This document shows, piece by piece, positions 37,090 to 59,845 of a stretch of DNA of 64,000 bases. The position numbers were made by a program, and so were the translations under genes. The notes under the pieces are model-generated. The model made no database searches and was not told the origin of the DNA. It saw nothing but the letters and a program-made list of their open reading frames with translations. Source of the DNA: a bacterium (GTDB lineage: Bacteria > UBA8248 > JACPRG01 > G963555815). The stretch is from assembly GCA_965261595.1 (NCBI GenBank), contig CBDHDG010000002.1:289550-353549 (forward strand), written 5' to 3'. Each line of letters opens with the position of its first letter. Position 1 is the first letter of the stretch.

Positions 37090-38532
37090 GAGGGTGTCCC
37101 GAATTCAGTTGAAGGTTTGAGGCGGCGGTCCGTGTGCGGTTCACCTTATGCGACCTCCTCTCGGGTGTCAAAGCGGGGCTCGTCCAGAACGGCCTTCAGG
37201 ATCCACAGGTCCCGGTAGCCGTCCAGGCGACGGAAGTTCTTCTCGGTGGCGAGGAAGGCGGAAGCGGCCCACCTTTTCACCATCGCCCCGTCCCGCCAGC
37301 GGCCGACGCGCCGGGTGCGCATCCGCACCCCCGAACAGGGACTCTCGATCAGGTTCGTGCTCACCAGGCAGCGCCGAAGGCCGGGCGGAAGAGCCAAGCG
37401 GTTGACGGTGAAGATCTCCTCCAGACCCTCCAAAAGGCTGGCGGCCGCGTCCGGATGCTCGATCTGAAGCCACCGGGCCTGCTTGCGCAGACGGGCAATC
37501 CCCTCCTTCGGCGCCAGCCGCCAGGCCGCCTTCATCGTCGCCTTCACCGGATCCTTCAACTCCTCGGGCAGGTGGTCCATCACGTTCTTCACCTTGTGGT
37601 TGCGGCACCGCTGCACCGGATTGTCGTCCCCGTACACCCGGTCAATCGCCGCACGAAGCGCCCTCGAGCCGTCGATGACGAAAAGCCGACGCCGCCCGGG
37701 CCGCACGCCGCGCTCCACCAACTCCTCAAGAAGCGCCGTCACGACCGTGGCGTTCTCGGTGGCGCCCGACCTCAGGCCCAGAACGTGCTTTTGGCCCCGT
37801 GTGTCCACCCCAACGGCCACGATGACGTGATGCGCGCCGAAGCGCAGACCGTCCAGGTAGAGGATGAGGAGGTCGATGTCGTCAAAACGCCGCTCACAAA
37901 GACGCCGCAGCTTCGCCTCGGCCGCCTCGATGCTCTCCCGGCTCACGGCCGACTTCGACACCCCCACCGTCTCGGCCAGCTCGGGAAGAACGGCCGCGTA
38001 GTTCCGCGTCGAGACCCCTCGCATCAGCAAATCCAGCATCCGCTCCCCCAGCCCAGGGTCGGCCTGCATGGCCGCATACGCCGGCACCTCCACCTCCCCG
38101 CCCCGACCCTGGCCCCGGCGGCGAAGCCGCGGCTTTCTCACCTTCAGCTTGCGCCCCTTCAGGGTCACCCGGCCCCCCTGGCTGCCGTGCCGGCGGACCT
38201 CGCCACCCCGCTTGCCTGGATGCGGCGCGCCCGTCAAGCCCTTGGCCGACAGCAAAAGCACGGCCTCCAGGCCCGCCCGGCCCATGACGTCCATCAGGTC
38301 CTCCACCGCCAGTTGGGACTGCTCCACCAGCGACACCAGAGGAAAAAACGCCTGCCCGTGCTCCGCCACAAAGGCGGCCAACCTTTGGGTCTCTTTCTTC
38401 TCGATGATCTGGTAAGCTTCACTCATGGCGGTTCCTCCTCTTTGAATGTTTGCCAACCCGATTCTAACCGAGTCGGCAGGAGTGAACCGCCACCTCTTTT
38501 TCTCAACCTTCAACTATGAATGGGACAGGCTC
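37090..38532 (-). mobile_element. IS256-family insertion sequence (1443 bp)
   Basis: Imperfect IRs GAGGGTGTCCCGAATTCAGTTGAAGGTT / GAGCCTGTCCCATTCATAGTTGAAGGTT; 8-bp TSD TCATTATG at 37082-37089 and 38533-38540. Confidence 0.95.
37146..38426 (-). CDS. IS256-family DDE transposase
   Basis: GVSTR, LYLDG, FVIDG, QRCRNH, STNLIES; GAGGAGGA RBS before ATG 38426. Confidence 0.95.
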   Translation of the reverse strand: MSEAYQIIEKKETQRLAAFVAEHGQAFFPLVSLVEQSQLAVEDLMDVMGRAGLEAVLLLSAKGLTGAPHPGKRGGEVRRHGSQGGRVTLKGRKLKVRKPRLRRRGQGRGGEVEVPAYAAMQADPGLGERMLDLLMRGVSTRNYAAVLPELAETVGVSKSAVSRESIEAAEAKLRRLCERRFDDIDLLILYLDGLRFGAHHVIVAVGVDTRGQKHVLGLRSGATENATVVTALLEELVERGVRPGRRRLFVIDGSRALRAAIDRVYGDDNPVQRCRNHKVKNVMDHLPEELKDPVKATMKAAWRLAPKEGIARLRKQARWLQIEHPDAAASLLEGLEEIFTVNRLALPPGLRRCLVSTNLIESPCSGVRMRTRRVGRWRDGAMVKRWAASAFLATEKNFRRLDGYRDLWILKAVLDEPRFDTREEVA

Positions 38533-47176: not shown

Positions 47177-48249
47177 GTGGACGTCTCCACCGGACGGGGC
47201 CGCGGTGGATGGGGCTAGAAGGACCTGCCCGCCTTTCCCGGCTTCGCCGCCATGCTCGGGCCCGGCATCGTGTGGGCCGCCCTCGCCCAGGGAAGCGGGG
47301 AGCTGATCTGGTGGCCGTATCTGACGGCCAAGTACGGCGGCGCGCTGTTGGGCCTTCTGATCCCGGCCGCTCTCATGCAGCTTTGGATCAGCGTCGAGAT
47401 CGGCCGGTACACGCTGAACACGGGCGAGACCATCTTCGCCGGTTTCCACCGGATGAGTCCCGTCTACGCGGGCGTCCTCTGGGTCGGGCTGTTGTGCGTC
47501 TCGCTCTGGTTCGGGGCGTACGCCGTCGCGGGCGGCACGTCCCTGGCCGAGTTGACCGGATTCCCGGCCGGTTGGACGCACAAGGGAAGAAGCCTGCTCT
47601 GGGCCTGCGTGACGATCCTCCTGTTCTTCTCCCTCCTGCTGTTCAGCCCGGTGGCGTACCGGTGGATCGAGAAGATCATGTGGGGGGTCGCGGGCGTCAG
47701 CGTGGCGGGTGTGTCGGTGGCCGTCGGGTACCCGGAGGTGTGCGCCGCGCGGGGGCGTTCTTCCGGGCGGTGACGGCTCCGCGCGCGAGTCTCCCGCAAG
47801 CTTGGGAGGCGTCCGACGCCCCCATCCTCCTCACGGCGCTGGCCTTCGCGGGGCTGGGCGGTTTTTTCAATTTCACGTACAGCTATTGGTTGCGCGAGAA
47901 GCGGGCGGGCATGGCCGGCTACATGGGGCGCGTGACCAGCCCGATCACCGGCCGGGAGGAGGCGTCCGCCGACACCGCCCTTTTGTTCGAGGATTCGCCG
48001 ACCAATCGCGGCCGCCACCGGCGCTGGACCCGCTACCTCTGGACGGATTGTCTGCTGGGCGTGGTCCTGAACCTGGTGACCGTCCTGTTGATGTGCTGGC
48101 TGGCCCTGGCCCTGCTCTATCCGAAAGGGTTGATCCCCAAGGGTTGGGAGCTTGCGGTCGTCCAGGCGAGGTTTTTCAGCTTCGCCTGGGGGCCGGCGGG
48201 CAAGGTCCTCTTCCTGGCGATCGCGGCGATCTTCTTGGCCGTTAAGTAA
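47177..48249 (+). pseudogene. Nramp-like/APC-fold transporter, disrupted and truncated
   Basis: LPAFPGF..MLGPGIVWAALAQGSGELIWWP...EIGRYTLNTGETIF; in-frame TAG at 47216, frameshift at ~47745-47755, then FAGLGGFFNFTYSYWLREK..GM. Ends abruptly at the AT-rich junction ~48241. Confidence 0.75.
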
Positions 48250-48443
48250 ATAAATCCATTCTCATCAGCCGTGAAATATCACTATCATATTGATATTATT
48301 GAATAATACACATTATTCCTGCTCTTGCTTAGAACTCGCCTTGCGTAGACCGTAATCAAAATGAAAGCGGATTTGTTAAAATGCCCGCGCATCCAAGCGA
48401 GCCCCTGTCGGTAAGCATTCAGTCGTGGGGTGATGCGCACGTT

Positions 48444-49316
48444 TCAGCGATTGAGGAATTGCTTCCAGTTTCTCCGCAGCGGCCGCAGCCAGATGTCCTT
48501 CTTCGGCTTGTCGTAGCGTTTGTGCCTGTCGTAGCGCCCACGTCCCTGGGTGGTTCCGACATGGATCCAGCCCGATGCCCTGTAGACGGCGCCAGTGTAT
48601 CGCGGTGTCTGGACGAAGGTCTCGATGAGCACGGGGGTGGTGTTGTAGCGCTCGGTCCAGTCCTCGGGCAGGCGCCGGCGGACGATGGCGAGGATGTGCG
48701 AGCCCAGGTTGGGGATCTTGATCCAGGGCAGGATGAGGAACCTCGGGTTGTCGACCACGAGGGAGAGGTTCTTCTCGCGCAGCTGCGGCGTCCATCCGAT
48801 GAAGCGGTCGCGCGGCGCGAGCTTCCACGCGGCGGTGCTGAAGCCGAGCATGGCGATGGGCCAACCGCTGCGGTCGTGGACGGCGTAGCGCATCTGTGCG
48901 CCGACCAGGGTTTTGTAGCCGAGATAGTGGTAGCGGGCGACGAACTCGTTCCACAGCCTGCCCTCGGGGGTGTCGCGCACGACGGTCCGCAGGTCGAGCG
49001 GGCGGACCTCCTCGAGGGTGGCCGGCGCCGGGATCAGCGGCCCTTCGGTGTCCGGTCCGAAGACGATCGGCCGGGCCCGGGGCCGTGGCCGCTTCGGCGG
49101 CGGGAGGGCGATCAGACCATCGTTGTGCATGGCCAGCATGGTAACCCGGGCCATCATGTCCTTGAGCCCGCCGTCGGGCTTGAGCCAGCCGATGCGCCGG
49201 CAGAACTCCTTCGACAGCGCATGGCGGTTCAGCGGCGGAGAGGCGGCGATCAGCGCGCGCAGCAGCCTCATCTCTTGCGTCGTGAAGTCACGGCCGTAAT
49301 AGCGGCACTCGGTCAT
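48444..49316 (-). CDS. DUF4338-domain protein (DruA-like domain) inside the IS66-like element
   Basis: LWNEFVARYHYLGY, GAQMRY, RDRFIGW, NPRFLILPW..IPNLGSHIL, LIETFV, GAVYRASGW..VGTTQGRGR; ATG overlaps the transposase stop (ATGA 49316-49313). Confidence 0.85.
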   Translation of the reverse strand: MTECRYYGRDFTTQEMRLLRALIAASPPLNRHALSKEFCRRIGWLKPDGGLKDMMARVTMLAMHNDGLIALPPPKRPRPRARPIVFGPDTEGPLIPAPATLEEVRPLDLRTVVRDTPEGRLWNEFVARYHYLGYKTLVGAQMRYAVHDRSGWPIAMLGFSTAAWKLAPRDRFIGWTPQLREKNLSLVVDNPRFLILPWIKIPNLGSHILAIVRRRLPEDWTERYNTTPVLIETFVQTPRYTGAVYRASGWIHVGTTQGRGRYDRHKRYDKPKKDIWLRPLRRNWKQFLNR

Positions 49317-51509
49317 GCCGCTCTTCCCGGCGCCATGAGGGCGCGCCTGCGTTCCCCGCTCATCGACCACGGCAGCCACGGCGAGAGGTCGTCCGGCGCC
49401 CGGCCGCCATTGTCCGCGCAGGCTCCCAGCCATGTCTCCAGCCAGCGGAGAAGGTCGATGCCGTTCGACGCGAGGGTGCCGAGGACCGAGTACATCATCG
49501 CCGTGAACCGGGCGCCGGTCTCGCTCACGGAGCCGAACGACAGCCGTCTCCCGATCACGGGTCCTCTCAGCGCGCGCTCGGCCGCGTTGTTGTCCACCGC
49601 ACCCGGGGCCGCTCGACGAAGACGGTCAAGCCCTCGCGATGGTTCAGCAGCGAGCGCAGCGCCTTGCCCTCGCGCGCCGCCCTCGGCAGGGCGGCCAGTT
49701 CCCGTCCGGCTTCCACGAACAGTCCGTCGAGCGCCTCTTCCAGCGCGGCCTGCGCCGTGGAGAACGCCGCGCTCTGCCGGTCGCGGCCGGGGTCGTAATG
49801 GACCAGACGCGCCTCGTTCAGCCGGTAGATCGCGGCGATCCGCTCGATCCATCTCCGGCACCACTGCGTTAGCCCTGCCTGGCCGGCGGCGCAGTGAATG
49901 AAGTCGCGGCGTTGATGCGCCCAGCACCAACACAGAATCACTGCACCACCGAGTTCGCGCGCCATTTTCTTGTAGGCGCTGTAGCGGTCGCAGACGATGA
50001 CCGTATGGTAGACGGCCGCGCCGAACAGCGTCTTCGCGACCTCCGCGCTGCGCGAGGGGTCGACGTGGAAGTAGACCGCGTCCTCGCTGACCGAGGTCCA
50101 CAGCCAAGCCCGGCTCGAGCGGCCCTCCTCGCGAAGCGACTGGACGCCCCAGGCGGTCTCGTCGCCGTGCCGCACCGCCGCCTCGTTCTGGCGCGCGAGG
50201 ATCGCCTCGGCCATCGGCTCGAACAGCGGTGCGAACCGGCGCGCGCTGCCGGCCAGCGTCCCTGGCGAGATCGGAAGCCCCTGGTCCGACAGCCAGGCGG
50301 CGACCCGGTTGAGCGGGCGGAAGCAGGCGTAGCGCTCGAACAGGAAGCGCGACCACACGCTGGTCCCGCAGGGCGTGCCTGCGAACAGGCGCGGCGCCGG
50401 GGGCGCCGACACTTCCATGAGCGAGGACGCGCAGTTGCATCTCCGGTGCCACCGGGGACGGACGATCCTGCGCCTATGGGCAGCGACCACGATCTCGACG
50501 AGGGTCGAGACACGGGCCCCGTTCACCACGTAGGGCTTCCCGCAACCGGCGCAAATGAGCATATCGGCCGGCGGGTTGCGTTCTTCCGTCCTCTCCTCGA
50601 GCGCGGGCCGCAGGGTGCGGCCATGACCGGCGGCGCCGGGATGCCGGCCGCGCCGGCGCTCCGAGCGCAGCCTCTCCTGCCGTTCGCTCCTGCGCCCGAA
50701 CAGCGCCTTCGACAGCACCGCCCCGGTCGCGCGAAGCTTCGCCAGCTGGACCTCCAGACCCGCTTGCCGGCTCGCCGACTTCCGCACCGCCTTGCGCAGC
50801 CGGGCGTTCTCTTTGGACTGGGACTTGATCGTGTTCTTCTGGCGCCGCGATCTCCTCAAGGCCTTGCGCAGTTCAGCGGCCTCGGACGTCTCCAGGACAA
50901 CTCGTAGCCGGTAGACCTCCTCGGACAGACACCGAACCGCGTCCGCCTGGTCGCGCAATCGCCTCAACTCGAATGGAGCCGAATGACCTCGCGGCCCTGC
51001 GACCCGATGGTCTCCTTGTGGGTCTCCGACGCCTGCGCCTCCCGGGCCAGCCGATCCTCCAGCCGGACGACCTGCCTGTCCCGCCGGCTGATCTCCTTGC
51101 GCAGCCGGGCGACCTTCCCTGACGGCGACGCACCCGCGCGGTCCCTGGCCGATTCGACGCCGGCTTCCGAAAGAAGCTTCTCCAGCCGCGCCACTTCCGC
51201 CTGTAAGGAAAGGGCGTCCTGCGCCGCGCGGCGGACTTCCTTCGTCTCCTCCACGGCCGCCTTCAGCTTGCTCCGGCAGGCGTCGAGCTGCCACTTCAGC
51301 GAACCCGCCCGGGCACGGGAATCCACATCGGCCCAGCCCAACTCTTCGCAGCGCGCCTCCGCCGCCTCCGCCCGCGCCCGCTCGAGATCGAACAGCGAAC
51401 GCCAGTCCGGTGCCCCGCATGAGGGCGTCTCAGCGCGAAGAGACCATGAGACATCCGGTTCCACGGCAAGGGAGAGGTCAGCCTGAACGGCGTCTGCGCG
51501 GTTCGTCAT
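49313..51509 (-). pseudogene. IS66 transposase (TnpC-like) with a long N-terminal coiled coil; two frameshifts
   Basis: LFGRRSE, CAGCG...CNC zinc finger, HGDET, WLW, CDRYSAY, CWAHQRR, DNNAAERALR. Frame changes near 50970-50975 and 49595-49602. Confidence 0.85.
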
Positions 51510-51619
51510 GCCCGCAAAAATACCACAAGTCGCGCCGTGTTACCAGCCCCTTGTCAGAACCTCGCCCGAAGTCCATGACGAACAAGCTGGACGTCATCAC
51601 CCCACGACTGAATGCTTAC

Positions 51620-51889: not shown

Positions 51890-52633
51890 TCACACCTTCC
51901 TGACCACCCACAACACCTTGCCGAGGATGTGTACGTCCTGGGCGAGGCATGCGTAGGGGGCGTAGTCCGGGTTGGCGGAGATCAGCCTGAGCCGGGGCGG
52001 TTCGTCCCCGCCCTCCCCATGGCCTTGCACCCTCTCGACCTGCTTGACCACCAGCCCGTTGCCGTCCCACAGCACGAACGTCTCCCCCGTTGACGGCAGC
52101 CGGCGCGAGACATCCACCACGATCCGGTCGCCCTCGCGCATCTCCGGCTCCATGGAGTTGCCCCGCACCCGGAGGATGCGCACGTTCTCGGGCGCCGCGC
52201 CCCCCTCGTAGCGGATCATGTTCTCCGGCCAGTGCCACCGGGCCGTCTCGGAGACGAACCCCTCGGCGAGCGCTCCCGCCCCGGCCCCGGCCTCCACCGC
52301 GATCTCCGGGATGGCCGCCACAGGCGCGCCGGGAAGTCCGACCGGCGGCCGGGGCCGCCTGCGCTTCATGGGCCTGCGTTTGGGCACGGTCTCGTGGCGC
52401 AGCTCCCCGCCGGCGCAGCCGAGCAGGTCGGCCAACGCCTCGCTGTCCCGGTACCCGAGGACCGCGGGCACCCCCCGGTCCACATACTGCTGCAGATAGG
52501 TCTTGTTCCGGCCGATGGCCAGCGACGCGGCGGCGAGGGTGAGGTCGTTACGCCTGAGCAGGTCCTTCAGCCTGAGCCGTACCGGGTCCCGCCTAATCGT
52601 CTTCCTTTCGTCCTTATTTCCCTCTATATTCAT
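51890..52633 (-). CDS. CI/LexA-like repressor (N-terminal HTH plus S24 autopeptidase)
   Basis: LAAASLAIGRNKTYLQQY HTH; AGAG cleavage-site motif; RVRGNSMEP catalytic Ser; VVKQV catalytic Lys; LISANPDY. Confidence 0.9.
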   Translation of the reverse strand: MNIEGNKDERKTIRRDPVRLRLKDLLRRNDLTLAAASLAIGRNKTYLQQYVDRGVPAVLGYRDSEALADLLGCAGGELRHETVPKRRPMKRRRPRPPVGLPGAPVAAIPEIAVEAGAGAGALAEGFVSETARWHWPENMIRYEGGAAPENVRILRVRGNSMEPEMREGDRIVVDVSRRLPSTGETFVLWDGNGLVVKQVERVQGHGEGGDEPPRLRLISANPDYAPYACLAQDVHILGKVLWVVRKV

Positions 52634-52720
52634 CCTTTTCCTTCCACCTGCCGTCTCCCCGGTTTTTTGCCGCACCCCCGCGCATTCCACCGCTGGTGTG
52701 CTCAGGAATGTCAATCAACT

Positions 52721-52752
52721 ATAGGTTATACACTATTGATACCTATTATCAA
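52721..52752. promoter_or_regulatory. Candidate operators in the divergent CI/Cro intergenic region
   Basis: AT-rich patch with a 17-bp palindrome TTGATA-CCTAT-TATCAA (52736-52752) and ATAGGT-N14-ACCTAT (52721-52746). Confidence 0.5.
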
Positions 52753-52769
52753 GCGGGAACCTTCCCCTT

Positions 52770-53543
52770 ATGTTCTCACACATGATAACGCCCGGCACCC
52801 CCTCCGATATGCCTTTCGACGAGCGCCTGCGCCGGACCGTTGCGGCCTGGCGCGTACGCCACGGCATGAGCGCCCGGCGCTTCGGCCTGGAGGCCCTCGG
52901 GGACCCGGGTTTCGTGGCCTCCCAGATGCGGGGACGCTCGGTGCGGCTGGCGACGGCGGACCGGGTCCTGGTCTTCATGGGGCATCCGCCTCTGGGCCCT
53001 GTGTTCCGGCGCGAGGTCGAGGCGTTCCTGACCGTGACCGGGACCAAGCTCTCGGTATTGGGCCTGGAGGCTGTCGGCAATCCGTCCTTCATGGGAAGGC
53101 TGCGCCGGGGAGTGTCGCCGCGGCTGACCACGGTCGATCGGGTGCGCGCCTGGATGGCGGCCCAGGCCAGCGCGGAAGAGGCCCGAGCCATCCGCGCCGG
53201 GGTGACGGACGCAGCGAACCCATCCGCCGGGGCGATCCTGCCCGGTCCATCCACCGCTCCGGTCCCGCCTGCCGGGTCCGGGGCCGACCTCGAACGAGAA
53301 GGAGACACGCGCATGAACGACAACAACGGCAGGCATTACCTGAGCACACGGGAGGCGGCCGCATGGCTGGGCCTCTCGCCGAGGACGCTGGACCGCTACC
53401 GGGTGAGTGGCGCGGGACCGGTGTTCCACCGGTTCGGGTCCCGGGTGCGCTACCTGCTCGCCGATCTGGAGACCTGGGCCTCGGCGCGGCGGCGGATCTC
53501 GACCTCGGACGACGGCGAGGCCGGGCGGAGGACGGCGCGATGA
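52770..53543 (+). CDS. Tandem Cro-like HTH domains fused to a C-terminal excisionase/AlpA-like HTH
   Basis: Repeats GMSARRFGLEALGDPGFV..RGRSVRLATADRV and GTKLSVLGLEAVGNPSFM..RGVSPRLTTVDRV; then YLSTREAAAWLGLSPRTLDRYR..GP.F.RFGSRVRY with its own AAGGAG RBS and ATG at 53313. Start may be 52782 or 52809. Confidence 0.8.
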   Translation: MFSHMITPGTPSDMPFDERLRRTVAAWRVRHGMSARRFGLEALGDPGFVASQMRGRSVRLATADRVLVFMGHPPLGPVFRREVEAFLTVTGTKLSVLGLEAVGNPSFMGRLRRGVSPRLTTVDRVRAWMAAQASAEEARAIRAGVTDAANPSAGAILPGPSTAPVPPAGSGADLEREGDTRMNDNNGRHYLSTREAAAWLGLSPRTLDRYRVSGAGPVFHRFGSRVRYLLADLETWASARRRISTSDDGEAGRRTAR

Positions 53544-53872
53544 GAACACCTTCCTTTACCAGGAACGCCCTCAAAGCCGTCGTGGGCAGCGCGCATCGGG
53601 TTGCGGCTCCGGCGCTCGTGTTGACGCTGGTTAGCCTGGAGACGGCCTGGGCCTCGACGGACACGACCTTCTCGAGTCCGCTCGGCACGGTGACCGACAT
53701 CGTCTCGGGCACGGGCGGGCAGCTCGCGGCCGCGCTGGCGGTGGGCGCCGCGCTGGTCGGCTCGGTGCTGCGCTTCAACGCCACGCAGTTGATGGGCGCG
53801 GTCGGCGTGGGCATCGCGGCCGGGGCCGGCACGGGCATCGTCACCGGCCTTGTCGGCACGGCGATCGTATGA
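53540..53872 (+). CDS. traA: Conjugative pilin
   Basis: Leader ending AWA, two hydrophobic Gly/Ala segments, position immediately before traL; ATGA coupling. Confidence 0.7.
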   Translation: MRTPSFTRNALKAVVGSAHRVAAPALVLTLVSLETAWASTDTTFSSPLGTVTDIVSGTGGQLAAALAVGAALVGSVLRFNATQLMGAVGVGIAAGAGTGIVTGLVGTAIV

Positions 53873-53884
53873 GGGGGGCGGACG

Positions 53885-54178
53885 ATGAGCGATCCGGCCC
53901 GGCACGCGATCCCCTCGCGTCTGGACGATCCCGAGCGCTGGCTGTTCTGGACCCTGGACGAGGCGGCGGCGCTCCTGGGGCCTGCGGTCCTGGGGCTGGC
54001 CGCCAACGCCTTCGTGACCGGGCTGGTGGCCGGGCTCGGTGCCTGGGCCTTGCTGCGCCGGGCCAAGCGGGGCGGCGGCGCGGATGTGGCGATCTGCGCG
54101 CTCTACTGGTACCTGCCCGGCTTCACCCTGGGCCTCAAGGGCGCGCCCCCGAGTCATGTGCGCCGCTTCATCGGATGA
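53885..54178 (+). CDS. traL: F-type T4SS protein TraL
   Basis: IPSRLDDPERWLFWTLDE...LYWYLP...PPSHVRRFIG. Confidence 0.9.
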   Translation: MSDPARHAIPSRLDDPERWLFWTLDEAAALLGPAVLGLAANAFVTGLVAGLGAWALLRRAKRGGGADVAICALYWYLPGFTLGLKGAPPSHVRRFIG

Positions 54179-54188
54179 GGGGGCCTGG

Positions 54189-54746
54189 ATGAGACGGGAC
54201 GTCATGGAAGCGGAGCGGCGGCGGGTGCGCGACGGGCGTGCGGCCCTGGCCGGGCTCCTGGGCCTCTCGCTCCTGGCCAATCTGGGCCTGAGCGTCGGTC
54301 TGGCCTCGGTGGATCGCATGGCGGTGCTGATCCCGGCGGTCACGGGGCCTGCCTGGGAGGTCGGGAGCAGCCGGGCCGGGCTTCGCTACCTGGAGGACAT
54401 GGGACGGACCGTGGCGGTGACGCTGCTGACGCTGACGCCTGAGAACGCGGCGCACGTGCGGGAGGCGGCGGCGCGGCTGAGCCACGCCTCGGCCCGGGGC
54501 GCGATCGGGGTCTGGGTCGCGGCCGAGGCCGGTCGCATGGCGCGGCGGGACCTTGCGACCGCCTTCTATCCCGAGCGCATCGAGGCGGACGCGGAGAGGT
54601 TGACGGTCCTGGTGACCGGAGAGCTCGCGACCTGGATCGGGCGTGAGCCGGTCTCGCGCGAGCGCAAGCGGTACCGGCTGGCCTTCCGCGTGGATGCCGG
54701 CCGGATCGGCCTGGTGCGTTTCGAAGAACTGGAGGACCGAGAATGA
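54189..54746 (+). CDS. traE: F-type T4SS protein TraE
   Basis: N-terminal TM, VLIP, YLEDM, LTLTPEN, TAFYP, VTGELATWIG; gene order. Confidence 0.85.
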   Translation: MRRDVMEAERRRVRDGRAALAGLLGLSLLANLGLSVGLASVDRMAVLIPAVTGPAWEVGSSRAGLRYLEDMGRTVAVTLLTLTPENAAHVREAAARLSHASARGAIGVWVAAEAGRMARRDLATAFYPERIEADAERLTVLVTGELATWIGREPVSRERKRYRLAFRVDAGRIGLVRFEELEDRE

Positions 54747-55498
54747 AACATGCGACGAGAATCCGGGTGTCCGTGGCGGCGCTTCTTTTGGGAACGCTTT
54801 TCCACTGCATGCCGGCCTCGGCCATGCAGATCCTGGATGCCGTGGACCACGCGGAGCTGGAAGCGGAGGTCTCGGACCGTGCGGTGAGCCGCATCGCCCT
54901 GGCGAACGACCGGATCGCGCGGGTGATCCGCGGACCGGACGGCTTCCAGGTCGAGCACGACCCTGCGCGCGGCGACATTTACCTGCGACCCGCGGGCCTC
55001 ACCGGCGTCCGCGTTGCCCGTGGCGCCCCCCGGGAGCCGGTGACGCTCTTCATCGGGACCGTCGCGGGCTTCACCTACCGGCTGGCGTTGACGGTGGCCT
55101 CGCGCGGCTCGGCCCAGATCCTGATCCGCAACGCGGCCGCACTGACCAAAACGGACGTCCAAGGGCCGGGCGATCGGCGCGTGGGCGCGCTGGTGGCGCT
55201 GGTCCGGGCGGTGGCGCGGCGCGAGACCCTGCCGGGCTACGCGATCGAGACGCCTTCAGGAACGTTCTACAAGGAAGGTCTTTCAGTCATCGAGATCTGG
55301 CGGGGGCCCCGGTTCACCGCCCGCGTGCTGGAAGCGGGCCCCGGCGCGGGAGCCGGCGCCGAGGCCCTGGCGGGCCGTCTCGCGCCGGGCGCGGCCGCGA
55401 TCTGGCTGGCGGCGCCGGGGACCGGCCCATCGGGCGGGCGGCTCGTCGTGGCCGTACATGACGCCTTCCGGACCCGTTCCACGGAGGCGGCGCCATGA
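54743..55498 (+). CDS. traK: F-type T4SS secretin-like TraK
   Basis: Signal peptide, SRIAL..DRI, GDIYLRP, TLFIGT..GFTYRL; gene order. Confidence 0.85.
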   Translation: MKHATRIRVSVAALLLGTLFHCMPASAMQILDAVDHAELEAEVSDRAVSRIALANDRIARVIRGPDGFQVEHDPARGDIYLRPAGLTGVRVARGAPREPVTLFIGTVAGFTYRLALTVASRGSAQILIRNAAALTKTDVQGPGDRRVGALVALVRAVARRETLPGYAIETPSGTFYKEGLSVIEIWRGPRFTARVLEAGPGAGAGAEALAGRLAPGAAAIWLAAPGTGPSGGRLVVAVHDAFRTRSTEAAP

Positions 55499-56748
55499 GC
55501 GGCCCGGACAAGGTCCCCATGGATCCGGAGGCCCGGCGCACCCGTCAGCAACAGGTGCTGCTCTTCTCGGGCGTGGCCGCGGCATTGCTGATCGTGTTCG
55601 CGGTGTGGTTCTCGGCGGGCGGAGGCGGAGGCTCGCCCCCGCCGACCGGGATCGAGGCGAAGCTGGCCGGTCCGGAGACGGCGGAGGTGAGCTGGGTGCG
55701 CCGCTCGGAGGCGCGGATCGGCGAACTGGAGACGCGGCTCCGGGACATGGAGACGCGAAGCCGGCGGGCCGGGCAGGAGAACGCCAAGCTCAGAGAGCGC
55801 CTCGCGCGCGGCGCCGAGGACGGCCGGGCGGTGATCGACCAACAGGCGGCGGCCATCGAGGAACTGCGCGGCCGGCTCGAAGCCCGGACGGCAGGACCGG
55901 GTCCGGAGGACCGGACCGCCCCGGGCACGGACGGTTTTACCCGTGCGGTTTCGAGCCAACCTGCTCCCGGCAAGAGAGCCCCCGCGGCCTCGGATGCCGC
56001 ACCGGCCGTACCGATGATCCAGGAGTTCGAGAATGATGCGGATCCGGCGGGGGACAAGAACGCCGCTGATCCGGGACCCCGTTCGCTGGGGTCCTGGCTG
56101 CCGGCGGGGTCCTATGCGGACGCCGTGGTGCTGGCCGGCGCGGACGCCTCGGCGGGCGTCGCCTCCCAGGGCGAGCCGCGCCCGGTGCTCCTGCGGCTGA
56201 CCGGTCCGGCCCGGAGCGCGGCCGAGGGCGGCGAAGCGCTCGAAGTGGACGTGGCGGGGTGCACCCTGACCGGCGCCGGCTACGGGGACCTCTCCTCGGA
56301 GAAGGTCTACGTCCGGCTGCGGACCCTGACGTGCGCCGGGCCGGATCCGGAAACCGTGACCGAGACGCAGGTCGCGGGCTTCGTGGCCGGGAGCGGCAAG
56401 GTGGGCGTTCGGGGCCCGGTGGTGAGCCGCGAGGGGGCCCTGATCGAGAAGGCGTTCCTCGCGGGCCTCATCTCGGGCGTGGGCGAAACGGCCGCCAACC
56501 TGCTTCAGGCCCCGGCCAGGACAACCTCGGACGGAGCCTTGAACGTATCGAGCCTAGCCGAGCTCGGCCGGGCCGGTCTTGGCGCGGGCGCGGGCTCGGC
56601 CGGCCGCAGGGTGGCCGACTACCTGATCCGCCGGGCCGAGCAGTACCAGCCGGTGATCCAGCTCCAGACGGGAACGCGGGTGACGGTGGTGTTCATCGAG
56701 GGCGCCTGGCTCGACGGGCGCAAGGACAGGAAGAGAGGAGGCCAATGA
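55495..56748 (+). CDS. traB: F-type T4SS TraB (VirB10-like)
   Basis: TM, coiled coil, WLPAGS, GADA, GDLSSEKVYVR, GKVGVRGPVVSREG, YLIRRAEQYQPVI. Confidence 0.92.
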   Translation: MSGPDKVPMDPEARRTRQQQVLLFSGVAAALLIVFAVWFSAGGGGGSPPPTGIEAKLAGPETAEVSWVRRSEARIGELETRLRDMETRSRRAGQENAKLRERLARGAEDGRAVIDQQAAAIEELRGRLEARTAGPGPEDRTAPGTDGFTRAVSSQPAPGKRAPAASDAAPAVPMIQEFENDADPAGDKNAADPGPRSLGSWLPAGSYADAVVLAGADASAGVASQGEPRPVLLRLTGPARSAAEGGEALEVDVAGCTLTGAGYGDLSSEKVYVRLRTLTCAGPDPETVTETQVAGFVAGSGKVGVRGPVVSREGALIEKAFLAGLISGVGETAANLLQAPARTTSDGALNVSSLAELGRAGLGAGAGSAGRRVADYLIRRAEQYQPVIQLQTGTRVTVVFIEGAWLDGRKDRKRGGQ

Positions 56749-57311
56749 GAGCGCAATCGACGATTCATCCACGAATCGGACAAAGCCGGGCGGTGATCCC
56801 CGCGATCCTCGCGGCGGCGCTGGTCCTGGGCGGCTGCGCGGCGACCCACGTGGGCGACGCCTGGCAATGCCCCCTGGCCCAAGGCGCGGCCTGCACGAGC
56901 GTCGCGGAGGCCGATCCGGCGGTCGCGGCCCCCGGCAAGGCGCAAGGGCTCGCGATCCGGACACCCCTCTACCAATCCAAGACCGGTAATGCCAAAGGGA
57001 CCGGCACATCCTGCGCCGAAGGCTGCGATCCGCTCGCCTGGCTCGCGAAGTGGTTCCGGACCGTCGGGGACCGAGACGGCACCGCAGAGAAGTCCACGGA
57101 GACAGGGCGTCCTCCTACCGCCGCGGCCCCTGCCGAACCGGAACCCGTTTCGCCGGACGAAGGATCCCCGGATGAGGCCAATGACCGCCTGCGCACGAAA
57201 GAGAGCATCGCGCGGATCTGGATCGCGCCCTTCGTGGACGCCGACGGGGTCTACCGCGAGGCCCACTGGGTGCGCGCGGTGCTGGAGCCGGCGCGCTGGA
57301 GGCTGCCGTGA
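56745..57311 (+). CDS. traV: F-type T4SS lipoprotein TraV
   Basis: Lipobox LGGC, WQC...GAAC, RIWIAPFVDADG. Confidence 0.88.
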   Translation: MRAQSTIHPRIGQSRAVIPAILAAALVLGGCAATHVGDAWQCPLAQGAACTSVAEADPAVAAPGKAQGLAIRTPLYQSKTGNAKGTGTSCAEGCDPLAWLAKWFRTVGDRDGTAEKSTETGRPPTAAAPAEPEPVSPDEGSPDEANDRLRTKESIARIWIAPFVDADGVYREAHWVRAVLEPARWRLP

Positions 57312-59845
57312 TCGAGCGCCTCAAGGACCTGCTCAGGGGACCGGACGCGCTTCAGCCCTGGATCCTTCCGGCCCTGCCGGCGCCCCTCGCCGGCCTCTTG
57401 CCCTGGCGGGCCTGGGACGAAGGGAGCGAGCTCTATATCAACGCCGCGAGCTGCGGCTTCCTGCTGGAGCTGCCGCCCTTCGTGGGCATCGACGAGGAGA
57501 CCCTGGGCGCGCTGGCCGGCACGCTCGCCGACGCCGCGCCCGAGCGCGCGGTGGTGCAGATCATCCATTGGACGAGCCCGCGCTACGGGGCGGCGATCCG
57601 GAGCTGGGCCGAACCCCGGCGCCTGACGGGCGGGGTACAGGCGGGGATGGCGGCGCGGCGCAGGGCCCTGTTTGCCCATGCCGGATGGCGCCCCCTCCAT
57701 GCGAGCGGACCGCCGTTCACGCTGAACGACTGCCGGGTGTTCCTCGCGGCCTGCCTGGCGGGCCCGGCCGGACCGGCGGCCGAGACCGCCCTCGGGGGGT
57801 TCCGGCGGGCCTTGGAAGGCACGCTCGCCTCGGCCGGCGCCGAGGCGCGGCGGGTCGAGCCGGACGTTCTGCTGTCCCTCGCCGCGGAGATCACGGCCCC
57901 CGACCTGGCGGGAGAGCATGACGGCGGGCTCGACAGGCCGCAAAGGCGCTGGTCGCCCAGAGACCCCATTCATCTTCAGTGCGCGGCGCCGGGCCGGGCC
58001 CTGACCGTTGCGCCCACGGGCCTGGTCTTCCTTCACCCGGACGGGACGGACGTGGCGGTGCGCGTGCTCTCGGCCCGGGCCTTCCCCGACGTCTGGCCCG
58101 GCTGGCGCGGCAACGCGCTGATCGGAGACTTCCACCGGGACTTCCTGCAGCCGGGCGCCCCGGTCCTGACCGCCCTCACCGTGACGATGGGCGACGCGGC
58201 CGCCGGCGAGCGCGCCTTCCTCAAGTCGGCCCGGGCCACGCAGCAGGCGGGCACGGGGATCGCGCGCTATTTGCCGGGCCTGCCCGAGAAGGCCCGGGAC
58301 TGGCGCTTCGTCACCGAGCGGCTGAAGAACGGCGAGCGGCTGGTCAAGGCCTGCTACACGATCGCGGTCTACGCGCCCCTGGACGCCATCGACGAGGCCG
58401 AGCAGGCGGTGCGGGCCATCTATCACGGCCAGGGCTGGCGCCTGGGCGCGGAGCGCTACGCCCACCTGCCGGCCTGGCTCGCCTGTCTGCCCATGGTTCC
58501 GGCGGGCGGGCTCGACGCCGACCTCGCCCGTATGGGCCGGATGAAGACCCTGCTCACCTCCTCGGCCGTCAATCTCGCGCCGGTGCACGGCGAGTGGCGC
58601 GGCCAGGGAGCGTCGCCCGACGCGCCGCCGGCCCTGCTCCTGATCGGAAGGCGGGGCCAGCCCGCGTGCTGGTCCCCCTTCGCCAACGAGGCCGGCAACT
58701 ACAACGTGGCCGTGACCGGCAAGTCCGGGTCGGGCAAGTCGGTCCTGATGCAGGAGCTGGTCGCGGGCATCGCGGGCGCGGGCGGCGAGGCCGTGGTGAT
58801 CGATGACGGGCGTTCCTTCCAGCACACGGCCGAGGCCCTCGGCGGCGTCTTCATCGCCTTCGGCAAGGACCCGGCGAGACTCAACCCCTTCGCCATGATC
58901 GACGCGGACGTGGCGGCCCGGGACGGGGACTACCGGGAGGAGTGCTTTGCCATGCTGGCCGCCGTGGTCGGGCGCATGTGCCGAAGGCGCGGGCGCATCG
59001 ACGACATCGAGGCGGCGCTCATCGACGAGGCCATCGCGCGCGCCTGGGAGGAGGCCGGCAACGGCGCCGACCTCGGGACCGTGCAGCGCCGGCTGGAGGC
59101 GGCGGGCGACCGGCGGGCATCGGACATGGCTCTCGCCCTCGGACCGTGGCGGCCGGGCGGCGCGCTCGGGCGGCTCTTCGAGGGATCGGAGACCCCGGCC
59201 CTGGACGCCGCGCTCACCGTGTTCGAGCTCGCCGAGCTCAAGGGCCGGGGCGACGTCCAGGGCGTGGTGCTGATGCTGGTGGTCTTCCTCGCCACCCAGC
59301 GCATGTATCACGGCCCCAGAACCCGGCCCAAGGCGATCGTCATCGACGAGGCCTGGGACCTCCTGTCGGGCGAGGACAGCCGGGCCTTCCTCGAGGGCGC
59401 GGCCAGGCGGGCGCGCAAGTACCGGGGCGCGCTCGTCACCGGCACCCAGAGCGTCAACGACTACTACGCCAACCCCGCGGCCCGGGCGGCCTGGGACAAC
59501 GCCGACTGGACCATCTTCCTGGCCCAGAAGGACGAGTCCGTCGAGCTCCTCAAACAGGAAAAGCGCATCCACTGCGATCCCGGCATGGAGCGGGCCCTCA
59601 AGAGCCTGGCCACCGTGGACGGGCGCCATGCCGAGCTGGTGCTGCACGGTCCGGACGGCTGGCGCGTGGCGCGGCTCGCCCTGGACCCCTGGTCGGTAGC
59701 TCTCTATTCATCGCGCGGGCCGGCCTTCGCCGCGGTCGAGCGGCTGAAGGCCGAAGGCCTCACCACCGAGCAGGCCATCGACCGCATCGCCGACGGCGAC
59801 GGTCCGGAGGCCACGACAGCCGGCCCTGCGGGCAGCGCGCCGTGA
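57308..59845 (+). CDS. traC: F-type T4SS ATPase TraC (VirB4-like)
   Basis: NYNVAVTGKSGSGKS Walker A, IDDGRS, IVIDEAW Walker B, RRARKY, TQS, LDPWS. Confidence 0.95.
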   Translation: MIERLKDLLRGPDALQPWILPALPAPLAGLLPWRAWDEGSELYINAASCGFLLELPPFVGIDEETLGALAGTLADAAPERAVVQIIHWTSPRYGAAIRSWAEPRRLTGGVQAGMAARRRALFAHAGWRPLHASGPPFTLNDCRVFLAACLAGPAGPAAETALGGFRRALEGTLASAGAEARRVEPDVLLSLAAEITAPDLAGEHDGGLDRPQRRWSPRDPIHLQCAAPGRALTVAPTGLVFLHPDGTDVAVRVLSARAFPDVWPGWRGNALIGDFHRDFLQPGAPVLTALTVTMGDAAAGERAFLKSARATQQAGTGIARYLPGLPEKARDWRFVTERLKNGERLVKACYTIAVYAPLDAIDEAEQAVRAIYHGQGWRLGAERYAHLPAWLACLPMVPAGGLDADLARMGRMKTLLTSSAVNLAPVHGEWRGQGASPDAPPALLLIGRRGQPACWSPFANEAGNYNVAVTGKSGSGKSVLMQELVAGIAGAGGEAVVIDDGRSFQHTAEALGGVFIAFGKDPARLNPFAMIDADVAARDGDYREECFAMLAAVVGRMCRRRGRIDDIEAALIDEAIARAWEEAGNGADLGTVQRRLEAAGDRRASDMALALGPWRPGGALGRLFEGSETPALDAALTVFELAELKGRGDVQGVVLMLVVFLATQRMYHGPRTRPKAIVIDEAWDLLSGEDSRAFLEGAARRARKYRGALVTGTQSVNDYYANPAARAAWDNADWTIFLAQKDESVELLKQEKRIHCDPGMERALKSLATVDGRHAELVLHGPDGWRVARLALDPWSVALYSSRGPAFAAVERLKAEGLTTEQAIDRIADGDGPEATTAGPAGSAP

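Follow-up and report, generated by a model that had tools for sequence, protein, structure and literature searches.

Canonical members of the IS66 family of insertion sequences (IS66, IS679) carry the gene array tnpA-tnpB-tnpC, and terminal repeats beginning with GTAA serve as a criterion for membership. To our knowledge, the transposition mechanism of the family is poorly understood, and no GNAT or Mom-like transferase is known to be employed by any insertion sequence (IS). DruA is the first protein of the type I Druantia defence system, in which its role is unexplained. A simpler layout within the IS66 family is that of ISDge4 of the ISBst12 group, reported to have one open reading frame (ORF) encoding a 449-aa transposase, GTAAC-type ends and an 8-bp repeat (PMC12898284). 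The domain DUF4338 (Pfam DruA, PF14236) has already been termed a GNAT domain (PMC10853773), and the phage Mu protein Mom is described as moving glycine from Gly-tRNA to the N6 of adenine in double-stranded DNA, with R111 and S124 being essential and an insertion at ~175–209 being needed for activity (PMC13219725). Here, we analyse a 3,209-bp unit located at positions 48411–51619 of a 64,000-nt stretch of DNA, referred to as the window, from a bacterium of the phylum UBA8248 (assembly GCA_965261595.1, contig CBDHDG010000002.1, positions 289,550–353,549). The unit is a defective member of a widespread IS66 variant in which the transposase gene is followed by a gene for a DruA-like protein, a pairing not described in the literature searched. 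The titles and abstracts covered, outside which lie most subscription journals and ISfinder, contained no description of an IS66 element paired with a DruA-like gene, and the full-text literature searched held no mention of DUF4338 in insertion sequences.

The unit is flanked by 25-nt inverted repeats with 25/25 complementarity, situated at 48411–48435 on the plus strand (GTAAGCATTCAGTCGTGGGGTGATG, druA side) and at 51595–51619 on the minus strand (tnpC side). Both begin with GTAAGC and are thus of the GTAA type, and the 25-nt pattern occurs twice in the whole window against 0.00 occurrences expected from 100 shuffles. Both genes of the element are encoded on the minus strand. Reading inward from the tnpC-side repeat, an untranslated leader of 85 nt (51510–51594, minus strand) precedes the start codon of an IS66-family tnpC with a long N-terminal arm (49313–51509), this codon having been chosen to match the N-termini of intact relatives. 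The ORF at 48444–49433 matches PF14236 (E = 7.7e-40), and its probable start, an ATG at 49316, defines an intact druA-like gene at 48444–49316 (290 aa plus stop), whose product by itself matches the same family with E = 4.9e-40. This ATG overlaps the TGA (49313–49315) of the last transposase frame in the arrangement ATGA, and the stop codon of the druA-like gene (48444–48446) lies 8 nt from the terminal repeat. No tnpA or tnpB ORF was found between the two repeats, and the IS66 TnpB domain PF05717 had no match in the whole 6.17-Mb source genome, in a search that was positive in 3 of 14 control genomes. The 8 bp immediately outside the ends are unlike each other (CCCTGTCG versus GTCTCAAG), so that the window copy has no target-site duplication. 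The initial annotation had described an IS66-like element devoid of tnpA and tnpB, with perfect 25-bp repeats and an intact DUF4338 gene coupled to the transposase gene by an ATGA overlap and ending 8 bp from the repeat, all of which holds. It had also placed a TnpC with a putative coiled-coil extension between the repeats; the assignment to IS66 stands (PF03050), that to a single coding frame does not, the gene being spread over three frames by two 1-nt deletions.

The pairing of the two genes extends far beyond the source genome. Using the transposase core alone as query, 75 loci were collected from metagenome-assembled genomes, down to 39% transposase identity, and the taxa named in their titles include Alpha- and Gammaproteobacteria, Acidobacteria, Binatia, Acidimicrobiales and Desulfobulbaceae. 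A DruA-like gene lies directly downstream of the transposase in 67 of the 75 loci, that is, in every locus that could be judged; the remaining eight comprise three contig or locus ends and five truncated transposase genes. This supports the proposal that the DUF4338 gene belongs to the element itself, for which the collection of further copies had been suggested. In the 67 loci the DruA-like gene starts 5–102 nt (median 15) past the end of the transposase match. The transposase itself is a single ORF of 598–863 aa (median 771) in 57 loci, and in an intact relative ~325 residues precede the conserved LFGR.SE motif, the first 300 of them being 67% R/A/E/L/K. Perfect 8-bp target duplications of varied sequence flank 25 of the 42 related loci with refinable ends. 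Across 31 distinct elements, identity between the DruA-like proteins exceeded that between the transposase cores in 460 of 465 pairs (median identities 79.0% and 62.5%, respectively). The protein family is large: a word-indexed search gave 2,682 matches among 4,364 candidates, all those among the 120 matches listed being ≥79% identical, and an exhaustive search found 8,541 representative clusters that match the DruA-like protein at E ≤ 0.001.

DruA-like domains also occur in one polypeptide with transposase domains. Comparison of 14 unusually long homologues with Pfam revealed five in which the DruA-like domain is joined to an IS66 DDE domain, two with a Tn5-type DNA-binding/dimerisation domain, two with DDE_Tnp_1 and five with the DruA domain alone. 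On a plasmid of Candidatus Thiodictyon syntrophicum, a part-match falls inside a coding sequence annotated as an ISAs1-family transposase. On the plasmids of this organism, one homologue was also observed beside an integrase and an IS91-family transposase.

These properties place the variant between two described arrangements. It resembles the ISBst12 group (ISBst12, ISDge4) in its IS66-type DDE transposase, the lack of tnpA and tnpB, the GTAA ends and the 8-bp duplication, whereas members of that group have one ORF and the present variant has an obligatory second gene and a transposase of ~770 aa with an arm of ~325 aa. With canonical IS66 elements it shares the transposase family, the type of ends, the 8-bp duplication and the coupling of accessory genes to the transposase gene; there, however, the accessory genes lie upstream and are unrelated (TnpA, TnpB/PF05717), while here the accessory gene lies downstream and encodes an enzyme predicted to adopt the GNAT fold.

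In the window copy, the transposase gene is disrupted. The IS66 DDE domain PF03050 (E = 9.7e-44) is split over two ORFs, with profile positions 4–254 in ORF 49567–51420 and 253–283 in ORF 49313–50452, and the N-terminal arm occupies a third frame (ORF 50964–51509), which gives approximate gene segments of 50964–51509, ~49600–50970 and 49313 to ~49600. Alignment with paralogues locates a first frameshift, where one nucleotide of the other copies is missing, at 50969–50970, and a second 1-nt deletion at 49598–49600, immediately ahead of the conserved DNN..ER motif in the DDE domain (both on the minus strand); neither lies in a long homopolymer. Over 50708–51050, the first deletion included, the window agrees in every base with a 343-nt contig of sequencing run X1 (depth 40); this run is possibly the source sample of the window assembly and thus represents a second assembly rather than an independent sample. 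A contig of run X4 carries an extra C behind 50969, corresponding to the intact-frame state, which the X1 contig, like the window, lacks. Similarly, a contig of run X5 has an extra G behind 49598, again the intact-frame state, at a site outside the X1 coverage. Judged by these assemblies, the first frameshift is real and the second is probably so. A programmed frameshift was considered and rejected, because 57 relatives have one ORF and the paralogues are broken at different places. Two frameshifts in tnpC together with the missing target duplication mean that the window copy should be unable to move by itself; as read from its sequence, it is non-autonomous and mobile only with transposase supplied in trans.

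The source genome contains further copies with 80–91% nucleotide identity and a variant repeat, as well as fragments. None of the four full-length copies with mapped frames has tnpC in one frame, the breaks lying at different places, and among these four no intact tnpC was found for the genome. The full copies on C6 and C7 are segmental duplicates of one another. A paralogue at C6 scored 267 bits against the NCBIfam model transpos_IS66 (NF033517; cut-off 180). Seven near-full-length DruA-like frames in the genome are free of stops, and the ratio of nonsynonymous to synonymous substitution rates (dN/dS) of the druA-like gene in the window is 0.25–0.35 against four closer full-length paralogues and 0.55 against a fifth, divergent one. 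In addition, four miniature elements of 235–241 bp have the same 25-bp ends, three of their eight ends being identical to the window repeat (C3:13402-13636, C6:268759-268999, C6:1632111-1632345 and C6:1632354-1632588); the last two stand in tandem and have a common 8-bp target. Perfect 8-bp duplications are also present in the source genome, around a degraded copy and around two miniature elements. At the RNA level, contigs of run X17, a sponge metatranscriptome, cover parts of both genes with 90–99% likeness; most of them are pieces of relatives and DNA carry-over is possible, so they are no proof of expression, and the summed contig depth, in which the druA-like gene far exceeds tnpC, cannot rank the genes and was not used for any inference.

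The second protein was compared with Mom and with GNAT enzymes by structure and by profile. An AlphaFold model built on a 41-sequence alignment reached a mean predicted local distance difference test score (pLDDT) of 93.1 and a predicted TM-score (pTM) of 0.82, and divides into an N-terminal winged-helix-like domain (~residues 1–75), a linker and a Mom-like GNAT domain (~100–290). Folded alone, the N-terminal 100 residues reached pLDDT 72, and nearly all of their listed matches were winged-helix domains at VIA Z-scores of only 4.2–5.2, so that the winged-helix-like assignment of this domain is a weak one. For the C-terminal domain the model clearly predicts a GNAT fold: Foldseek retrieved 276 Protein Data Bank (PDB) chains at E ≤ 0.001, all those among the matches listed being GNAT-fold acyl- or acetyltransferases, and 796 of 998 chains reached a VIA Z-score ≥8. 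In the VIA-align ranking, Mom (8bv8_A) came first with Z = 14.6 (root-mean-square deviation 3.7, 170 residues aligned), followed by Naa60 with 13.3 and other acetyltransferases at 12–13. In the viral library BFVD, uncharacterised phage proteins were the best matches (E ~2e-8) and a Mom protein ranked sixth (E = 1.9e-7). HHalign against a Mom-family alignment, made from eight proteins of phage records, gave a probability of 92% (E = 6.5e-7, 157 columns). Ordinary acetyltransferase families of Pfam gave no match at E ≤ 10, and among solved structures searched by sequence the best hits were E = 0.29 with phmmer (a Cas5) and E = 0.97 with the family profile. The nearest characterised relative of the GNAT domain is phage Mu Mom, in agreement with the resemblance to Mom that the initial annotation had drawn from motifs; the proposed comparison returned the GNAT fold and the Mom-family alignment, and failed to return a match to the Pfam Mom family PF25680.

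At the level of residues, HHalign pairs H130/Y131, R192, N203, S206 and Y245 with Mom H58/Y59, R111, N121, S124 and Y159, a pairing that comes from the 92% profile alignment rather than from a residue-level superposition; these positions are kept in 64–68 of 68 copies. The catalytic positions of Mom comprise H58, Y59, D149, R151 and Y159 besides R111 and S124; R151 is offset by one from the conserved R239. Along with the fold, the matched positions make up the likeness to Mom (PF25680; PDB 8bv8), from which the DruA-like protein differs in the missing ~175–209 insertion, the extra N-terminal winged-helix-like domain and its genetic setting, Mom being phage-encoded and the DruA-like gene being carried by an insertion sequence.

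Within the phylum of the window, PF14236 matches were detected in 17 of 51 genomes and fall into two types. The insertion-sequence type scores ~130 bits over profile positions 45–226 and is multicopy, the window protein reaching 138 bits (cut-off 27) over 45–226 only, whereas full-length matches of 368–396 bits occur in two genomes. The PADLOC DruA model gives the window protein 20 bits (E = 6.9e-5), whereas one of the full-length matches reaches 361 bits and is a true DruA; the window protein has 22% identity with it in one BLASTP alignment. That true Druantia-type DruA is encoded on the minus strand by ORF 1357–2490 of locus L101 (G034:C1:630782-634669). By this single alignment, the Mom-like C-terminal motifs of the insertion-sequence type are unmatched in the true DruA, and the transposon version may be catalytically more Mom-like than Druantia DruA. 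Both proteins match PF14236 above the cut-off, but DruA covers the whole profile and the window protein lacks neighbouring DruB–E genes: it is flanked by tnpC and the terminal repeat, a druE search elsewhere in the genome having not been made. On the strength of these scores, the window protein is only a distant relative of Druantia type I DruA.

The druA-side end abuts an AT-rich, conserved flank of 161 bp (48250–48410), a multicopy repeat termed E0 here, which ends with the recurrent target CCCTGTCG (48403–48410). Its minus strand carries the remnant of a small ORF (48285–48410), and two promoter-like sites in it face the IS (0.2 expected). The genome holds 22 copies of the flank; 18 of the 20 that reach the flank end are joined to an IS66-type end, either immediately or at a distance of up to 2 nt, these being nine druA-side ends, three tnpC-side ends and six miniature elements. 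Representative places in the genome are C7:1247673-1248000, C4:416395-417587 and C6:1632111-1632588; loci L132, L133, L153 and L154 provide further examples. A degraded copy of 1,046 bp and the two tandem miniature elements are flanked by duplicated CCCTGTCG octamers. Within the phylum, 22 of 51 genomes have E0, some of them being devoid of PF14236 matches; in other assemblies, it lies against the ends of related elements in at least eight loci. Uninterrupted units continue for a further 200–335 bp, giving a whole unit of ~0.35–0.5 kb; their opposite strand has a frame of ~44 codons that starts with ATG and is preceded by a ribosome-binding-like site, the insertions being located just after the second codon. 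E0 is a recurrent insertion site of the IS66-type family, and repeated landing at one site makes it a natural target for in vitro assays. Rfam yielded no family at gathering scores in the window and none at E ≤ 1 on four loci covering the flank, the uninterrupted repeat and miniature elements.

The reading of E0 as a part of the IS is rejected for the copies with CCCTGTCG duplicated at both repeats, also because uninterrupted units exist; for the window copy, which has no duplication, it may still apply. The full-length copies in the genome, including that of the window, lack both the far half of E0 and the duplication, which points to later rearrangement. At C3:16402-17519, the usual site behind one flank copy is taken by a different element with a zinc-ribbon transposase-like ORF, IS1595-like by eye. 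At nine places in the genome (e.g. C6:1059958-1060533 and C7:952379-952953), the flank lies within a stretch of 575 bp with 99% identity among copies, which includes, by eye, the C-terminal part of a Mutator/IS256-type transposase.

Taken together, it appears probable that the window feature is a decaying copy of a two-gene IS66 branch whose partner enzyme is Mom-like and acts in transposition. Intact members have GTAA-type 25-bp ends, 8-bp target duplications and a transposase of ~770 aa composed of the IS66 DDE core and the ~325-aa N-terminal arm, with the ~290-aa winged-helix-like and GNAT protein encoded directly downstream, 4 nt apart or overlapping. The DruA-like protein would be an active acyl- or aminoacyl-transferase working with the transposase at the transposition complex, standing in the place of TnpA and TnpB rather than serving the host as cargo. 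A role in transposition is favoured because of the strict linkage, the tight coupling, the stronger constraint and the fusion to unrelated transposases. As for its substrate, DNA, either the element ends or the target, is put forward tentatively as the most likely one. A more doubtful candidate, next in line, is one of the proteins in the complex, for instance the transposase or a nucleoid protein. A broader version, which we regard as unlikely, would make a Mom-type, possibly aminoacyl-tRNA-dependent, DNA-marking enzyme the general obligatory partner of unrelated DDE transposases (IS66, Tn5-like IS4, ISAs1), modifying ends or target to license or direct insertion; in the phylum of the window, the system would home to the fixed 8-bp site after the start codon of the small E0 ORF, and DruA of Druantia would then rank as a derived relative of a transposon enzyme.

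Several observations weigh against this interpretation. In the Foldseek ranking of PDB chains Mom (8bv8) is only 13th (E = 1.4e-5), among ordinary acetyltransferases, and its lead in VIA-align amounts to only 1.3 Z units. HHalign against the single Mu Mom sequence gives a probability of only 2.1%, and PF25680, with which Mu Mom itself scores 253 bits, has no match at E ≤ 10. The position of Mom D149 is Q in the window copy and E in 62 of 68 copies, that of N163 is G in 67 of 68, and in the HHalign comparison the helix-turn-helix-like insertion of Mom (~175–209) has no counterpart, the DruA-like profile having a short loop there. The authors of the Mom study caution, moreover, that a fold in common with Mom predicts neither donor nor substrate (PMC13219725). 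Strict linkage was measured only in the clade reachable by the peptide patterns of the query, and a part of the fused forms may be artefacts of gene calling that ran from one gene into the next. No independent contig confirms the second frameshift (49598). Left of the flank, a neighbouring membrane-protein-like gene (47252–48249, plus strand) is also split between two frames, with no Pfam match for either piece, and is either a pseudogene or a sign of assembly indel errors; a residual chance thus attaches to assembly indels as the source of the tnpC breaks.

The rival explanations differ in what they make of the second gene. It could be a passenger that helps the host or replicon, spread by the IS as a Mom-like anti-restriction modifier or a solo Druantia-like piece. 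Such a role would fit the reported shielding of phage Mu DNA from restriction by Mom (PMC13219725, PMC7261163), the naming of PF14236 after a defence protein, the persistence of open druA-like genes in copies with a broken transposase and the position of the window copy next to genes for F-type TraE, TraK, TrbI-like and TraC proteins and an S24 repressor, where protection on entering a new host would pay. Against cargo stand the presence of the gene in 67/67 judgeable related elements, its welding to the transposase stop codon, its multicopy state within genomes (14 matches in G026, for example) and the occurrence of the domain in one polypeptide with three kinds of transposase, as well as the absence of any other Druantia gene flanking the window gene and the PADLOC score of 20 rather than 361 bits. 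We consider cargo improbable; since fusions of the domain extend to other transposase families, anti-restriction cargo is the least favoured of the three options that the initial annotation had offered, namely a DNA-modifying enzyme, an anti-restriction enzyme and a transposition cofactor. A protein acetyltransferase has somewhat better prospects, at low odds all the same: the GNAT domain would acylate the long basic arm of the transposase or a nucleoid protein and so tune the transposase, the winged-helix-like domain acting only as a tether. Most of the structural neighbours listed after Mom are indeed N-acetyltransferases (Naa60, RimI, SpeG) at Z-scores of 12–13.3, near Mom's 14.6; the DNA-contacting insertion of Mom is missing, and the arm of the transposase is rich in R and K. 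The sequence signal, however, is Mom-specific (the HHalign probability of 92% and the common H-Y, R, N..S and Y positions), no ordinary acetyltransferase family is matched, and Mom is among the best viral matches.

A further possibility concerns the window copy and not the family, and is compatible with a Mom-like enzyme acting in transposition elsewhere: the whole element may be dead DNA, its 290-codon frame being open by recency and idle in the cell. This is conceivable, at less than even chances, given the two frameshifts in tnpC, the missing target duplication, the Q at the D149 position, the lack of any intact tnpC found in the genome and the detection of at most 0.48 of the element's sampled words in any sequencing run. 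It sits less easily with 25-bp repeats that are still perfect and recur identically on miniature elements elsewhere in the genome, or with a druA-like frame that is free of stops and has dN/dS values of ~0.3 to four of the five paralogues compared. The window copy is itself a broken relic that matters only as a pointer to the family; what makes it of interest is the Mom-like partner enzyme. As a constant companion of one IS66 branch that is also fused to transposases of other families, such an enzyme would represent a new class of transposition accessory factor, would offer a concrete, testable idea for DruA of type I Druantia and would carry the newly established chemistry of Mom, in which a charged tRNA is the donor and DNA the acceptor, outside the phage world.

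The interval 51890–59845, on the right-hand side of the element, contains an S24-peptidase repressor-like gene, an HTH_17 gene and genes for the F-type TraE, TraK, TrbI-like and TraC proteins. These genes place the IS66-type unit on the border of a conjugative or integrative element, close to one end of the 353-kb contig. Elsewhere in the window, an apparently intact transposase gene of the Mutator/IS256 family (PF00872, E = 8e-32) is present at 37146–38513 on the minus strand.

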